This document shows, in pieces, positions 1 to 5,113 of a stretch of DNA of 64,000 bases. A program made the translations under genes and the position numbers. The stretch is from Escherichia coli (GTDB taxonomy: Bacteria > Pseudomonadota > Gammaproteobacteria > Enterobacterales > Enterobacteriaceae), in the NCBI RefSeq assembly GCF_024502345.1, contig NZ_JALDNN010000001.1; one strand, 5' to 3'. The notes under the pieces were generated by a model. The model made no database searches. It was given only the letters and a program-made list of their open reading frames with translations, and was not told where the DNA came from. Numbering within the stretch: position 1 is the first letter of the stretch; each line of letters begins with the position of its first letter.

Positions 1-240
1 ATCACTATCACACAGTTCCGGCCCGCTATGAGTGGCATGTCAGTATGCGGTGATGCGCTTAACGGTGACGAGTGGCCATTTACCTGGCGGATAAATGCGC
101 CACAAACAACGATCAAGTATTCGCTTGCTGGCGCGTCCTACTGCGGAGATCCGCTCGCATCGTGGGGCAATAAACAACTGGAGTGTTCAATCAACAAAAT
201 TGCCCCATCCCATCTGAACATCATTTTCAATTATTCATAA
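1..240 (+). CDS. 3' end of a phage structural gene (probably tail fibre), partial; reading frame is open from window start
   Basis: Frame 1 is open from position 1 to the stop at 238-240; sits directly upstream of tail-fibre-like and Tfa genes. Product assignment is by context only. Confidence 0.35.
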   Translation: MTITQFRPAMSGMSVCGDALNGDEWPFTWRINAPQTTIKYSLAGASYCGDPLASWGNKQLECSINKIAPSHLNIIFNYS

Positions 241-291
241 CTGATATTTCCCCCTCTGATTTTATCGCTTAACACTAAGTGAGGATTAACT

Positions 292-924
292 ATGCTCCGA
301 ATCGGGCAAGTCGAAGCCACTGCAACGCAGGATGGCAAATATACTGATGGAAGTGTTGCTGGTGGTATTGCCGCAACGAGGCTGCGGGCAGCAGCGTTTA
401 ATGCCATGCAGGAAGAGTTAGCGCATATCGTAGAGTCAGCAGGATTGGCGCTCGACATTAACGATATGACTCAGGTTTTAAAAGCCATTCAAAAACTCAC
501 ACTGAGCCGTGCAAACCCATTTGCCGATATCAAATCAGATGGTGCAGCGGCGATTTCTACGGCTCTCACAAACCTTGGATTGGGCGAAGCGGCGAAATGT
601 AACGTTGGAACTAGTGCTAACCAGATCCCCGATATGTCGTTTTTCACATATTCAAACGGTGTTTATAGATTCCCCAATGGGCTGATTCTGCAAATATTTA
701 ACAGGGTAACATCAACTACAGATACAACTACAGCATTTACTTTCCCTACGGTTTTTCCTGATTCATGCCACGGCATTTTTTCGACATATAACTCGGGGAC
801 AGCAGGTAACTACTACACGTTCAATAATGTGACTCCTGCGGGTGCAAATATGCAGGCGTTTCTCGGGTCGCCCACACCTACCAAGGGCGGCAGTACTGCA
901 ACAATAGTTGCGTTCGGGAGGTAA
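292..924 (+). CDS. phage tail-fibre-like / receptor-binding-module protein (210 aa), hypothetical
   Basis: ATG at 292 preceded by GAGGA; stop overlaps the start region of the downstream Tfa gene (TAATAATG). Size and position resemble short side-tail-fibre genes that pair with tfa in lambdoid cryptic prophages; called by context, not by recognised motif. Confidence 0.45.
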   Translation: MLRIGQVEATATQDGKYTDGSVAGGIAATRLRAAAFNAMQEELAHIVESAGLALDINDMTQVLKAIQKLTLSRANPFADIKSDGAAAISTALTNLGLGEAAKCNVGTSANQIPDMSFFTYSNGVYRFPNGLILQIFNRVTSTTDTTTAFTFPTVFPDSCHGIFSTYNSGTAGNYYTFNNVTPAGANMQAFLGSPTPTKGGSTATIVAFGR

Positions 925-926
925 TA

Positions 927-1352
927 ATGCAATACGCCTATAGCCAGTCGCAGAATCTGTTTTATGTGCGTGAGTGGGAGCGTGACTACGGGGATTCATG
1001 GCCTCAAGATTGCCTTGATGTATCCGACGAGCAATTCAGAGAGTTCAGTGTTGAGCAAGCACCTGGAAAGGTTCGCTCACCAGGTATTGATGGTCTTCCA
1101 TGCTGGATTGACGTGCCACCGCCAACGCAAGACGAATTAATCGCTATAGCTGCTGCAGAAAAACAGCGACTGATTGCTGCTGCTAACGAATTTATGAATG
1201 GGAAGCAATGGCCCGGTAAGGCGGCAATTGGTCGGCTGAAAGGCGATGAGTTGTCGCAGTACAACTTGTGGCTGGATTATCTCGACGCCCTAGAAGCGGT
1301 CGACACCTCCAGCGCACCAGATATCAACTGGCCTATTCAGCCGGAAGTGTAG
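927..1352 (+). CDS. tfa: phage tail fibre assembly protein (Tfa family)
   Basis: 141-aa product ends ...LDALEAVDTSSAPDINWPIQPEV, matching the conserved Tfa C-terminal motif (lambda Tfa ends ...VDTSTAPDIEWPAVPV). GGGAGG Shine-Dalgarno upstream. Confidence 0.75.
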   Translation: MQYAYSQSQNLFYVREWERDYGDSWPQDCLDVSDEQFREFSVEQAPGKVRSPGIDGLPCWIDVPPPTQDELIAIAAAEKQRLIAAANEFMNGKQWPGKAAIGRLKGDELSQYNLWLDYLDALEAVDTSSAPDINWPIQPEV

Positions 1353-1492
1353 GCCATTCCGGGTCTGCTGTATCAACGTGCATCAGCAGCACCCGGTATT
1401 TCTTTCACTCGCTTAGAGCGGTGGTTTCTTCCTCCGTCGCAATACCTGCATCAACAGCATCCTGACGCCGGTCAATCTCTGAGTCTGCCTGC

Positions 1493-1520
1493 GCTCGTAA
1501 ACCAACCTTTTTTATAACCA
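1493..1520. other. candidate Hin/Gin/Pin-family crossover site (hix/gix-like)
   Basis: CTCGTAAACCAACCTTTTTTATAACC resembles gix (TTCCTGTAAACCGAGGTTTTGGATAA), about 60 bp upstream of the invertase gene. The match is imperfect and no partner site was found in the window. Confidence 0.3.
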
Positions 1521-1576
1521 TCAAAAATCTGGTGATGCTTCGCCGTTTCTCCTGTTTTCATAACAGGAGAAATCCC

Positions 1577-2131
1577 ATGATTTACGGTTATGCCCGAGTA
1601 TCAACAAACCACCAGGACACTGAATTGCAACTAACGGCGCTCAAGTCAGCGGGTTGTGAGAAAATTTTTGAAGAGCATGCCAGCGGGAGGAAATCGAATC
1701 GGCCGGTTCTAAAACGGCTCATCGCCACTATGCAGCCGGGGGATGAACTGGTGGTATGGAAACTAGATCGCCTCGGGCGAAGCATGCGAAATTTAGTGCT
1801 GCTGGTCGACGAACTCCGACAGCGGGGCATTCACTTTAAGAGCCTCACGGACAGCATTGATACATCAAGTCCAATGGGGCGTTTTATATTTCACATCATG
1901 TCAGCGCTGGCGGAAATGGAAAGAGAGTTAATCGTCGAACGCACCCGGGCTGGATTAGCGGCTGCGCGGGAAAAAGGGAGAATAGGTGGCAGACGTCCAA
2001 AATTAACTCCCGAGCAATGGGCACAGGCTGGGAGATTAATATTAAACGGCGTGGATAGAAAACAAGTGGCAATAATTTATGATGTCGCTGTATGCACGCT
2101 TTATAAAAAATTTCCGGTGGGGCAGGCTTAA
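1577..2131 (+). CDS. pin: site-specific DNA invertase, serine recombinase (Pin/Gin/Hin/Cin family)
   Basis: 184-aa product starting MIYGYARVSTNHQDTELQ, with the catalytic Ser in YARVST and a C-terminal HTH; AGGAGA Shine-Dalgarno 7 nt upstream. The longer ORF from 1532 is an in-frame upstream Met. Confidence 0.9.
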   Translation: MIYGYARVSTNHQDTELQLTALKSAGCEKIFEEHASGRKSNRPVLKRLIATMQPGDELVVWKLDRLGRSMRNLVLLVDELRQRGIHFKSLTDSIDTSSPMGRFIFHIMSALAEMERELIVERTRAGLAAAREKGRIGGRRPKLTPEQWAQAGRLILNGVDRKQVAIIYDVAVCTLYKKFPVGQA

Positions 2132-2173
2132 ATGATAAAAGGGCAGCTGCTAGATAGGCTGCCCGTCAAAGTA

Positions 2174-2437
2174 TTATCCATTTTGCCGGACAGTTGGAAA
2201 TTCAGACGTCAGCCACATGTCAGATTCATCAAACATTTCCTCCAGCATACGGTTCAGCTTTTCCCGATCACTTTTGCTGGCATCACTATTTAAGCCGTTC
2301 GCCTGCATCGGCTTTACCTTCACTTCGGCATCAGGAAAAATCTGGTGCACCCGCTTCGTTAGTTCAGCCAGGATGATCTCTCTGGCCCCTTGGAGTCCTT
2401 CAACATTTCGCTTGTCATAAACCAGTTCAACAAACAT
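2174..2437 (-). CDS. dinI: DinI-family DNA-damage-inducible protein (prophage-encoded)
   Basis: 87-aa product MFVELVYDKRNVEGLQGAREIILAELTKRVHQIFPDAEVKVKP...DMWLTSE matches the DinI family in length and sequence; LexA box about 60 bp upstream. Confidence 0.8.
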   Translation of the reverse strand: MFVELVYDKRNVEGLQGAREIILAELTKRVHQIFPDAEVKVKPMQANGLNSDASKSDREKLNRMLEEMFDESDMWLTSEFPTVRQNG

Positions 2438-2495
2438 ACCGATCCTCTCATAAGTGAAAATTGCCTGTGCTTGATCTGTTTTTATAAAAATACTA

Positions 2496-2511
2496 CTGTA
2501 TATGCATACAG
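2496..2511. promoter_or_regulatory. LexA (SOS) box, CTGTATATGCATACAG
   Basis: Perfect CTGT-N8-ACAG palindrome with AT-rich spacer, between the divergent dinI-like gene and the two-gene cassette. A possible sigma70 promoter (TTGATC-17-TACTGT) for the plus-strand cassette ends just upstream of the box. Confidence 0.65.
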
Positions 2512-2536
2512 TCAATAAGCGAGTGAGGGTGCGTTC

Positions 2537-2776
2537 ATGCCTCGTCAACCGGATATTCGTGCTGCTTTTATTGCGGCCATACAGCAAAACCCGAAGGGCT
2601 ATCTCTGCCTGCATACAGACAGATTCATCGCTGAACTGCAGGAGAGGCGCTGGCACTTCAGCCAGGCGGATGCAAATTCATGGATCGAACGATACCAGCC
2701 AGACTTCGCCGATAAGACGACAAACGGAAGTGAGAACCGATACTGGATCCTGCGTAACATGGGGAGGGTTTTCTAA
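2537..2776 (+). CDS. hypothetical small protein (79 aa), first gene of a coupled two-gene cassette
   Basis: ATG with GAGGG Shine-Dalgarno 7 nt upstream; stop overlaps the start of the next ORF (TAATG). Soluble, Trp-rich, no recognisable family. Confidence 0.45.
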   Translation: MPRQPDIRAAFIAAIQQNPKGYLCLHTDRFIAELQERRWHFSQADANSWIERYQPDFADKTTNGSENRYWILRNMGRVF

Positions 2777-3096
2777 TGGGGTTTCCATCGCCAGCCATGG
2801 ATTACCAGGAGCAGCGCATGACAATAGATGTTATCTGTGGTGTAGATAACAACTGCCGGGTTATTGAAACTTCATGCGGCTGGGCCGTTATAAACGTCAG
2901 TCTTAAGCCAGAAGGAGGGGATACGTTGCTGGTTAGCATGGACGGGAGAAACCAGTTCGTGAAGCTAATGGGCCACGCGCTGATCACTCAAGATGGTGAA
3001 GCGATAGAAGGGGAAGCTTTGAATGACGTAACGGTACACGGCGTTCTAACACATACACTTAACCAAGTTAAGGACGATAAATCGCCTGTAATGTAG
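2776..3096 (+). CDS. hypothetical acidic protein (106 aa), second gene of the coupled cassette
   Basis: ATG overlaps the upstream stop by 1 nt; GGGGAGGG Shine-Dalgarno upstream; followed by a hairpin terminator. No recognisable family; alternative in-frame start at 2797 (MDYQEQ). Confidence 0.45.
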   Translation: MGFPSPAMDYQEQRMTIDVICGVDNNCRVIETSCGWAVINVSLKPEGGDTLLVSMDGRNQFVKLMGHALITQDGEAIEGEALNDVTVHGVLTHTLNQVKDDKSPVM

Positions 3097-3161
3097 CGTG
3101 TAAATGTCGGGGGTTATTCCCCCATTTTTCCCCAATGATTCCCCGTACAAATTTCAAACAT

Positions 3162-3190
3162 AAAAAAACCAGCCGTAAGAGGCTGGTTTT
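3162..3190 (-). terminator. rho-independent terminator downstream of proL (probably bidirectional)
   Basis: CCAGCC-GTAAGA-GGCTGG hairpin flanked by an A-run on the plus strand and a T-run on the minus strand, directly 3' of the tRNA and 3' of the plus-strand cassette. Confidence 0.6.
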
Positions 3191-3201
3191 CAATGTGTTT
3201 T

Positions 3202-3278
3202 TGGTCGGCACGAGAGGATTTGAACCTCCGACCCCCGACACCCCATGACGGTGCGCTACCAGGCTGCGCTACGTGCCG
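3202..3278 (-). tRNA. proL: tRNA-Pro (anticodon GGG)
   Basis: Reverse complement reads CGGCACGTAGCGCAGCCTGGTAGCGCACCGTCATGGGGTGTCGGGGGTCGGAGGTTCAAATCCTCTCGTGCCGACCA: 77 nt, cloverleaf-compatible, encoded CCA end. Confidence 0.95.
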
Positions 3279-3352
3279 ACTCGTGGCTGCTAATACTACC
3301 GTTTTCCACACCGATTGCAAGTAAGATATTTCGCTAACTGATTTATAATTAA

Positions 3353-5113
3353 TCAGTTAGCGATAAAACGCTTCTCGTCTGTCAGTACTTGCAATAACAA
3401 ACTTAACTGTGGTTTTTCATCTTTCACTCTTTCACCACGTAAGTTGTAAGTGCGGTATTTACCGTTATTGTTCAGCACCAGCGTCTTTTTCGGAGTGGTA
3501 ATTGCCAGCGTATCGTTATCCGCTGCGGTAACCCAGTAATGACGGCGTTGAGGGTTGAACAAATCCTGACCTTGCGAATATTCGCTGGCAGGTGTGCTGA
3601 CATGTAGCAGGCGTTGCATCAGCGTCGTCATCAGATCGGTATGATCAGTCAGAGCATTAATACGCTGCGCCGGCGTGCCTGGCCAGTGAATCACTAATGG
3701 CACCTGCAGATGACCGTGGGACCAGTCAAAGGTTTCTTCCTCTTCGCTCAGTGGAATACCCCGAGCGGCAGTGATAATCACCACCGTATTGTCCAGTTTG
3801 CCAGAATCACGCAGTGCATTGAGCACACGGTTGATCTGGTCATCGACATTGCCTGCCGCCCGGCTATATTTCCGTGCAAATGCCTGCTGATTGCTGTCGT
3901 CAATGTTAGTACCATTGAAAGAGACCCACGAGAACCAGCGGTTATCTTCTTGTGCGTAGCGTCCCAGCCAGTTGATCCACTGCGTGGCGGTCTGCTCGTC
4001 GGATTGGGTGCGTACGCTCGGCATCGAGAAATCTGACAACAATGCCTGGCGATACAGCGGGCTGGTAAAGCCATCTGATGAGAATAACCCCAGCTGATAG
4101 CCTTGCTGATTAAGCGCAGTAATTAATGCCGCAGGCGTACGGGTCGACAGAATGCCGTCCATATAGCTCGGCGAGATGCCATAGAACAGGCCAAAGATGC
4201 CGTTGTCTGTAGTGTTGCCGGAGCTCATATGGCGCGTGAACGAAATATTTTGCTCAGCAAAACCTGCCAGCGCAGGCATCTGCTTCTCGAAGCGTGAGTA
4301 GTTCAGGCCATCGACAGTAATCAACAGCACATTCTGCCCGGTGCCCATATCGCGATAGCGCAGTTCGCTTAACGGATACTGAACGGAAACGGCGTCTGGA
4401 TTACCTTGCTCAATAAGACGGCGTTGATACTCCTGCGCATCAAGCAGGCCATGCTTCTCAAGAAAACGTCGCGCCGTCATCGGGTACGAAAGCGGCAGGT
4501 TAGCGCGCTGCATGGTGATAGGGCGATAGAAGTTGGCATCGGCCCAGATATACACCACATGCGAGGCGATAAAGGCGATAAATAAGAATGCGGCCAGCGG
4601 GCGCGCGAAGCGTCGACGACGCGTCAGGCTGCGCAGCTTTTGCCAGCTCCACGTCGCAAACACCAGTTCAAGCAATAAAATAACCGGCACGCTGATGAAC
4701 ATCAGCTGCCAGTCGCGCGCCATCTCATTTTCGTCTGGGTTGATAACCAGTTGCCAGACGATGGGATTAAGATGGAGATGGAAACGAGTAAAGACTTCGC
4801 TATCGATCAGTAATAGCGTCATTCCCGCCGTTGCCAGAATGACGGACAAAAACCTCATCAGCCTCTGGGAGCCGACGATAAAGGTCAGCGGGAAGAGGAT
4901 CAGCAAGTAGGTGGCGAACACCAGGAAGCTGAAATGGCCGATAATGCTTACGTAGGAATAAATGCGACCAGCAAGCGTGGTCGGCCAGTCGGCGATAAAC
5001 AGGTAACGGCTGCCAATGACGAGCGAAAGCAGAATATTGAACAGTGCAAACCAGTGCCCCCAACTGACCATCTGGGAGACTTTTTCACGGTAGCGCTGAC
5101 GATGAGTTACCAT
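3353..5113 (-). CDS. yejM: inner-membrane cardiolipin transport / LPS-regulation protein PbgA (YejM)
   Basis: 586-aa ORF recognised as YejM; conserved position upstream of proL. Confidence 0.9.
   Translation of the reverse strand: MVTHRQRYREKVSQMVSWGHWFALFNILLSLVIGSRYLFIADWPTTLAGRIYSYVSIIGHFSFLVFATYLLILFPLTFIVGSQRLMRFLSVILATAGMTLLLIDSEVFTRFHLHLNPIVWQLVINPDENEMARDWQLMFISVPVILLLELVFATWSWQKLRSLTRRRRFARPLAAFLFIAFIASHVVYIWADANFYRPITMQRANLPLSYPMTARRFLEKHGLLDAQEYQRRLIEQGNPDAVSVQYPLSELRYRDMGTGQNVLLITVDGLNYSRFEKQMPALAGFAEQNISFTRHMSSGNTTDNGIFGLFYGISPSYMDGILSTRTPAALITALNQQGYQLGLFSSDGFTSPLYRQALLSDFSMPSVRTQSDEQTATQWINWLGRYAQEDNRWFSWVSFNGTNIDDSNQQAFARKYSRAAGNVDDQINRVLNALRDSGKLDNTVVIITAARGIPLSEEEETFDWSHGHLQVPLVIHWPGTPAQRINALTDHTDLMTTLMQRLLHVSTPASEYSQGQDLFNPQRRHYWVTAADNDTLAITTPKKTLVLNNNGKYRTYNLRGERVKDEKPQLSLLLQVLTDEKRFIAN

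Follow-up and report, generated by a model that had tools for sequence, protein, structure and literature searches.

A 64,000-nucleotide (nt) stretch of the Escherichia coli contig NZ_JALDNN010000001.1 (RefSeq assembly GCF_024502345.1; referred to here as the window) includes one end of a lambda-like prophage, where two small open reading frames (ORFs) lie between a dinI-like gene and a proline tRNA gene, behind a predicted LexA binding site (SOS box). The first gene, orf79 (2537..2776, + strand), encodes a 79-amino-acid (aa) predicted winged-helix protein of an uncharacterized, SOS-box-fronted family (PHROG 3893). The second, orf106 (2776..3096, + strand), encodes a 106-aa predicted UmuD'/HumD homologue that is pre-truncated and serine-less and that we refer to as the short form. 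The A at position 2776 is both the final base of the orf79 TAA codon and the first base of the orf106 ATG codon (TAATG overlap), and both genes have Shine-Dalgarno sequences (GAGGG at 2525-2529 for orf79 and GGAGG at 2763-2767 for orf106). The dinI-like gene (87 aa; 2174..2437, - strand) is divergent from the pair and has the SOS box in common with it, and a GC-rich hairpin followed by a T-run 13 nt past the orf106 stop codon (3109..3123, + strand; terminator scan) is the candidate operon terminator. An earlier annotation of this DNA, made from its letters alone (the original prediction), had described the two ORFs with their overlap and Shine-Dalgarno sites, the dinI-like gene, the terminator, and the tRNA-Pro gene, all of which we found where it had placed them. 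Its description of ORF79 as basic and Trp-rich and of ORF106 as acidic with three Cys residues likewise agrees with our values (isoelectric points of 9.0 and 4.5, respectively, with three Trp residues in ORF79 and three Cys residues in ORF106). Variable sites are distributed over the first, second, and third codon positions as 31/27/73 in orf79 and 42/24/94 in orf106, and this excess of variation at third positions indicates that both ORFs are real coding genes.

Conservation of the pair was assessed in a close set of 80 IMG/VR loci with ORF79 identities of 78 to 99%. ORF79 is intact in 76 of these loci, and in all 76 it overlaps by one base (T[AG]ATG) a gene beginning with MGFPSPA or a near variant of this arm, in line with the translational coupling that had been proposed from the single locus. 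Of the 76 partners, 57 are of the short form, 9 are of a long HumD-like form, and 7 are truncated, while a contig end cuts the other 3. Pairs of this kind occur in temperate siphoviruses from E. coli, Enterobacter, Klebsiella, Erwinia, and Pantoea, and the one-base overlap is also found in Erwinia and Klebsiella, both in phages and on chromosomes. Among six distant homologues (28 to 50% identity; Erwinia and Klebsiella phages and metagenomes), four have a UmuD'-like partner, with the one-base overlap retained in three; in the remaining one (L094), the partner begins just after the stop codon. The Klebsiella pair (79 plus 105 aa) lies at prophage ends and is very abundant, a single allele accounting for 1,293 indexed blocks of the assembly collection. 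Related DNA was found in approximately 3% of complete E. coli genomes, mostly as only part of the cassette, and the full cassette is carried by phages HK140, mEp390, Eeyore, and Flotzy, in which ORF79 is annotated as "hypothetical." A dinI-like gene adjoins most E. coli and Enterobacter copies of the pair but is absent beside the Klebsiella and Erwinia copies. The comparison across related prophages thus finds ORF79 and a phage UmuD' homologue kept together in both close and distant loci, and we regard the two as a conserved unit, as judged from these alignments.

The identity of the second protein could be narrowed down by profile and structure searches. ORF106 matches PHROG 3469 ("UmuD-like") with an E value of 1e-47, and its first 22 residues match the NCBIfam HumD and UmuD models. 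It starts with MGFPSPAMDYQEQR, residues 2 to 14 aligning with Gly25-Arg37 of UmuD, so that its onset corresponds to the residue just after the UmuD Cys24-Gly25 self-cleavage site, as checked against the K-12 UmuD sequence. In 30 family members, the arm motif GFPSPAxDYxExR has invariant G2, F3, S5, P6, A7, and D9, with P4 and Y10 conserved in at least 90%. A profile built from 30 relatives aligned with UmuD/UmuD' chains from positions 2 to 98 (UmuD residues 25 to 138; E value, 5.6e-7), and UmuD' was the top match for the predicted fold, with the S24 beta-barrel extending over the whole C-terminal domain. ORF106 is thus a predicted UmuD'/HumD homologue that would be made directly in the "cleaved" form, with arm and S24 beta-barrel kept. 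An alignment with UmuD, P1 HumD, N15 gp26, and phiKO2 gp23 revealed an 11-residue deletion that takes out the Ser60 catalytic loop, and short forms vary between K, T, and R at the Lys97 position. The acidic C-terminal tail ending in ..CPV[MI] or ..PV[MI] is common to short and HumD-like long forms and is lacking in chromosomal UmuD. Given the lost Ser60 loop, the variable Lys97 position, and the HumD-type tail, ORF106 is, by sequence, a shortened, noncatalytic derivative of the phage HumD lineage. The statement that neither protein could be recognized therefore does not apply to ORF106, although it holds for ORF79, for which the same types of searches gave no characterized match.

ORF79 matches PHROG 3893, a family of unknown function, with an E value of 1.6e-41. 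Scans of Pfam, NCBIfam, and PADLOC gave nothing significant for it, neither its sequence nor its family profile matched any entry in the PDB, and a Foldseek search of AFDB50 returned only members of its own family. Many of these carry the label "DNA polymerase V," which probably comes from their neighbor gene. An exhaustive search yielded 86 representatives at 50% clustering, with all named source organisms belonging to the Enterobacterales, and no study of the family was found in a literature search. The AlphaFold2 model (predicted local distance difference test score, 90) has the canonical winged-helix topology a1-b1-a2-a3-b2-b3, and we confidently predict that ORF79 is a winged-helix protein without a characterized relative. 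On average, members of the family are mildly basic; helix 3 (xxDANxWIERYQ) has acidic residues as well as an invariant Asn and Trp and does not look like a typical DNA recognition helix. The codons for the conserved C-terminal NMGRV or NPNGG residues also supply the next gene with its Shine-Dalgarno sequence. Four AFDB proteins carry an ORF79-like N terminus on a longer chain, namely, A0A376F6L4 (185 aa), A0A2L1UPR9 (193 aa), B1LH44 (199 aa), and A0A455RRG2 (223 aa). Two of the longer proteins bear the name S24/S26 peptidase domain protein; of all candidates, P0327 alone could be retrieved, and it is a frameshifted read-through product. A hunt with a concatenated ORF79-UmuD' profile provided no genuine fusion either. 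P0327 (L100:3746-4450) has a junk C terminus and lies next to a fragmented integrase gene in a decayed prophage, a single coding sequence crossing the junction in E. coli N73 contains merely a 20-codon ORF79 remnant, and longer "fusions" in the representative library appear to be noisy metagenome reads.

The predicted LexA site, the 20-mer TACTGTATATGCATACAGTC (2494..2513) with the core CTGTATATGCATACAG (2496-2511), agrees with the consensus TACTG(TA)5CAGTA at 17 of 20 positions and is the only CTGT-N8-ACAG sequence in the window. Its end lies 25 nt before the orf79 ATG codon; the original prediction had recognized the box itself but placed it 26 bp upstream. Since the window would be expected to contain 0.55 such boxes by chance, a single box proves nothing, and the decisive evidence is its conservation. 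The box was found at an unchanged offset in 78 of the 80 close loci, the other 2 having lost its left half by rearrangement, as well as in all six distant homologues (CTGT-N8-ACAG 29 to 38 nt upstream) and in five of six Klebsiella loci. In one Klebsiella genome (L104:2172-2264), a reverse transcriptase gene (RVT_1) sits immediately upstream of an ORF79 pair that is otherwise intact and has taken the place of its promoter and SOS box.

A putative rightward promoter for orf79-orf106 could be read from the sequence (2471..2499, + strand), with a -35 element TTGATC (2471-2476), a 17-nt spacer, and a -10 element TACTGT (2494-2499) located within the SOS box; it was not called by our fixed-threshold consensus scan. 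That scan did detect a leftward promoter-like site for dinI (2487..2515, - strand; -35 element TTGACT at 2515-2510, -10 element TATTTT at 2492-2487), with the SOS box lying across the -35 element and the spacer, and the layout of dinI promoter and SOS box in the phiKO2 annotation is the same. One predicted LexA box thus overlaps two divergent promoters, leftward for dinI and rightward for the bicistronic orf79-orf106 unit, which supports the earlier proposal of a single box for both transcripts.

The rightward elements (TTGATC, a spacer of 17 to 18 nt, and TACTGT) are kept in close and distant homologues and align with the E. coli K-12 umuD promoter/operator. In Klebsiella, the ORF79 operon has the operator TACTGTATATAAAAACAGTA, which matches the K-12 umuDC operator at all 20 bp, and the upstream 92 nt (L109:2172-2264 and L103:2172-2264) share 68.5% identity with the umuD promoter region (L113:128-220). 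Without gaps, 58 of 93 positions match, compared to a maximum of 43 in shuffled sequences. By these sequence criteria, the ORF79-ORF106 module has a umuDC-type control region. Since the Klebsiella control region is homologous to the umuDC promoter and its operator is identical, this suggests that the phage module descended from a umuD(C) operon.

The cassette occupies the position of a moron, with its own promoter and terminator between the tail fiber/invertase genes and attP/int. Positions 1-3197 of the window represent the last 3.2 kb of the prophage and include the C-terminal segment of a tail fiber gene (292-924), a tail fiber assembly gene (927-1352), and a Pin/Gin-type DNA invertase gene (1532-2131). 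The dinI-like product matches PHROG 189 ("RecA filament binding protein DinI") with an E value of 3e-21 and the NCBIfam DinI model with an E value of 1.9e-9 and 37.8 bits, under the equivalog cutoff of 111 bits. A sister prophage in E. coli SZQ1, a lambda-like siphovirus, matches window positions 1499-3400 at 98.4% and has a 50/50 direct repeat at both of its ends that equals window positions 3198-3247. By analogy, this 50-bp repeat over the 3' part of the tRNA gene is the attR core here (3198..3247). All DNA to the left of position 3198 is consequently phage DNA, including a hairpin predicted by the terminator scan as a bidirectional terminator (3165..3190, both strands). This hairpin would serve the reconstituted proL gene and, on the other strand, the phage operon. 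The tRNA-Pro(GGG) gene proL (3202-3278, - strand) was the sole match in an Rfam scan, and yejM, yejL, and yejK lie beyond it, so that the location of the cassette at the prophage-proL junction is as originally described. The SZQ1 sister prophage has two tfa genes in opposite orientations, suggesting an invertible host range segment, and no clear inverted crossover sites were found within the prophage part inside the window. We also observed a 108-aa phage gene product that consists of only a LexA N-terminal DNA-binding domain (nin region of the SZQ1 prophage, L008:17532-17858; mEp390 gp43, L098:6267-6587). It shares 43% identity with LexA residues 1 to 86, lacks a cleavage site and S24 domain, and belongs to PHROG 362 ("transcriptional repressor"). 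Such a noncleavable LexA mimic, made in lytic growth, could re-repress SOS boxes, including that of the cassette.

Taken together, we consider it reasonably probable that the cassette is a LexA-repressed moron that supplies a pre-activated UmuD'-like protein and thereby retunes host translesion synthesis, with ORF79 as its unexplained partner. DNA damage would generate RecA*, LexA would cleave itself, and the dinI and orf79-orf106 transcripts would be switched on. In the host, DNA polymerase V (Pol V) appears late, since UmuD has to be cleaved and since ClpXP degrades UmuD' in UmuD/UmuD' heterodimers (PMC6590174). Because the pro-peptide, cleavage site, and catalytic serine are all absent, activation of ORF106 cannot depend on RecA*-mediated cleavage, and the phage protein, requiring no such processing, should escape the delay in Pol V activation and bypass the host's brake on UmuD' accumulation. 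It might then engage host UmuC, as P1 HumD does, and/or UmuD and so retune translesion synthesis and mutagenesis during prophage induction. In parallel, the DinI-like protein would modulate RecA* filaments, on which DinI is known to act (PMC6590174). The least secure step concerns ORF79, which would most likely accompany the UmuD'-like protein as its stoichiometric partner or adaptor, a role that we favor since the coupling is conserved from 28% to 100% identity. A more specific version, in which ORF79 combines with the short UmuD'-like protein in a dedicated SOS effector complex that either delivers or shields the UmuD' mimic at UmuC or RecA* or acts as a noncleavable two-piece LexA-like factor, is at present a tentative idea that we would not expect to hold.

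Several observations weigh against supply of a pre-activated UmuD'-like protein with ORF79 as its partner. Solitary ORF79 genes occur behind a perfect SOS box with no UmuD'-like gene downstream (L092:3001-3249 and L096:530-772), and ORF79 persists beside truncated partners, so ORF79 may act independently of the UmuD'-like protein. Moreover, near-identical ORF79 alleles are found with short as well as long partners, although the two forms are only ∼26% identical past the arm, which disfavors tight coevolution, and the HumD proteins of P1, N15, and phiKO2 do without ORF79 altogether. ORF106 itself reaches 33.6 bits with the NCBIfam HumD equivalog model NF051876 (cutoff, 120), over residues 1 to 22 only, and a scan of ORF106 and 30 relatives with the Pfam Peptidase_S24 model gave no match; it therefore belongs to a divergent subfamily (PHROG 3469) rather than being a HumD equivalog, and the 11-residue deletion could abolish or even reverse UmuD' function. 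As for the surroundings of the two solitary copies, a gene for a secreted protein lies downstream of one and a terminator downstream of the other.

A reversed function would make ORF106 a decoy or dominant-negative protein that heterodimerizes with UmuD/UmuD' or sequesters UmuC or RecA*, blocking Pol V mutagenesis or blunting the RecA* coprotease and so sparing the phage genome error-prone synthesis. The missing Ser60 loop, the variable Lys97 position, and the low score against the HumD model are all compatible with this, as are the readiness of UmuD and UmuD' to swap subunits and the company of DinI, high levels of which inhibit UmuD cleavage (PMC6590174). Arm and barrel are nevertheless conserved, the short form takes the same slot as the HumD-like long forms, and the P1 record describes a HumD relative that complements UmuD', i.e., promotes mutagenesis, and we thus grant the decoy a limited chance of being correct. 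Alternatively, ORF79 could be an SOS-induced antirepressor like Tum, GfoA, or AntC, directed at the repressor of its own or a coresident prophage, with the UmuD'-like gene as a passenger. The original prediction had put forward such an induction module, and ORF79 is indeed small, LexA controlled, and located outside the immunity region beside a dinI homologue, as are the Gifsy antirepressors (PMC3121763). Its solitary occurrence behind SOS boxes and an acidic helix 3 better suited to binding protein than DNA would fit as well. However, comparison of ORF79 with Tum and GftA gave no similarity (hhalign probability, <1%), and there was none to their PHROGs (189/1993 and 4847, against 3893 for ORF79). 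The CI repressors of three carriers, HK140, mEp390, and the SZQ1 prophage (217 to 238 aa), have intact S24 motifs (GDSM...KK) and should therefore be RecA* cleavable. These repressors are only 32 to 61% identical to each other, in contrast to 78 to 98% for the accompanying ORF79 proteins, and an antirepressor role would give no reason for the conserved translational coupling to UmuD'-like genes. We therefore do not favor an antirepressor and regard it as rather improbable.

The third possibility takes the order of parts in LexA (winged helix, cleavage site, S24 domain) as its model: ORF79 would dock on a dimeric, S24-like ORF106 to form a noncleavable DNA-binding complex made only during SOS. 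ORF106 does begin at the cleavage site glycine, and the few AFDB proteins of 185 to 223 aa with an ORF79-like N terminus, two of them named as S24/S26 peptidase domain proteins, could be taken as one-piece counterparts. Yet hhalign detected no similarity between the ORF79 profile and LexA, the putative recognition helix is acidic, the only fusion retrieved was the frameshifted product from a decayed prophage, and ORF106 is of the UmuD rather than the LexA lineage, all of which makes a two-piece regulator very unlikely. A toxin-antitoxin, abortive-infection, or superinfection exclusion moron, also envisaged originally, would suit an overlapping two-gene cassette in a prophage accessory gene hotspot, but we consider it hardly credible: running the suggested defense system finder, PADLOC, gave no family match for either ORF at E values up to 0.1, domain scans of both ORFs found no toxin-like domain, and ORF106 is a predicted UmuD' homologue. 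The remaining proposal, an uncharacterized SOS effector, comes closest to the truth, though only for ORF79 and not for ORF106.

Few steps of the SOS response are controlled as tightly as the timing of Pol V activity, and Pol V drives damage-induced mutagenesis, including that underlying the evolution of antibiotic resistance. If supply of a pre-activated protein is correct, a prophage-encoded "cleaved" UmuD' under a umuDC-type operator would bypass this control. Should ORF79 and the UmuD'-like protein indeed form a dedicated complex, damage-induced mutagenesis would be subject to phage-encoded control in thousands of lysogens of Klebsiella, Enterobacter, and E. coli. ORF79, a constant companion in these loci, is a defined candidate for a new player in the regulation of SOS or translesion synthesis.

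Among known systems, the cassette resembles 186 tum and the Gifsy dinI-gfoA/gftA-irsA loci in consisting of small LexA-controlled genes linked to a dinI homologue outside the immunity region, and these LexA-controlled antirepressors are real precedents (PMC3121763). It differs from them in the lack of detectable sequence similarity of ORF79, in gene order, in being carried by phages with predicted cleavable repressors, and in having a UmuD'-like partner rather than irsA. Compared to E. coli umuDC, it has the arm (GFPSPAxDYxEQR) and the S24 barrel, a homologous promoter/operator, and adjacent genes overlapping by one base; in contrast, umuC, the 24-residue pro-peptide, the cleavage site, and the catalytic serine are missing, and an unrelated upstream ORF is present. 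Small proteins paired genetically with S24-fold SOS proteins are also represented by Acinetobacter DdrR with UmuDAb and by GIL01 gp7 with LexA. DdrR and gp7, however, act on full-length repressors, while the partner of ORF79 is a UmuD'-like fragment, and ORF79 itself matched no NCBIfam model.

The closest relatives are the humD loci of phages P1, N15, and phiKO2. P1 HumD, N15 gp26, and phiKO2 gp23 are, like ORF106, phage UmuD' homologues without an N-terminal pro-peptide and without a umuC partner, and the long form that accompanies ORF79 in HK140 shares 66% identity with P1 HumD and 69% with N15 gp26 (64.8 to 69% over the P1, N15, and phiKO2 proteins). In the P1 annotation, a LexA site lies between divergent lxr and humD genes, and the record states that HumD, the only one of these proteins for which such a role is known, functionally complements UmuD' (the HumD reference, McLenigan 1999, is listed as ref. 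78 in PMC4713147). In that of phiKO2, it lies between gp22 (DinI) and gp23 (UmuD). The LexA box thus also serves a divergent gene in P1 and phiKO2, in the latter dinI, exactly as here, and the claim of a previously undescribed system was overstated. What sets the present locus apart is a 79-aa winged-helix gene that separates the UmuD'-like gene from the operator and is translationally coupled to that gene, together with a shorter UmuD'-like protein lacking the 11 residues of the Ser60 loop. With the main component and the architecture known from P1, N15, and phiKO2, the cassette extends a known theme rather than defining a new system: a LexA-box-fronted humD gene with a divergent dinI or lxr gene is already known, and what is added to it here is the uncharacterized winged-helix protein ORF79 and the shortened UmuD' form.

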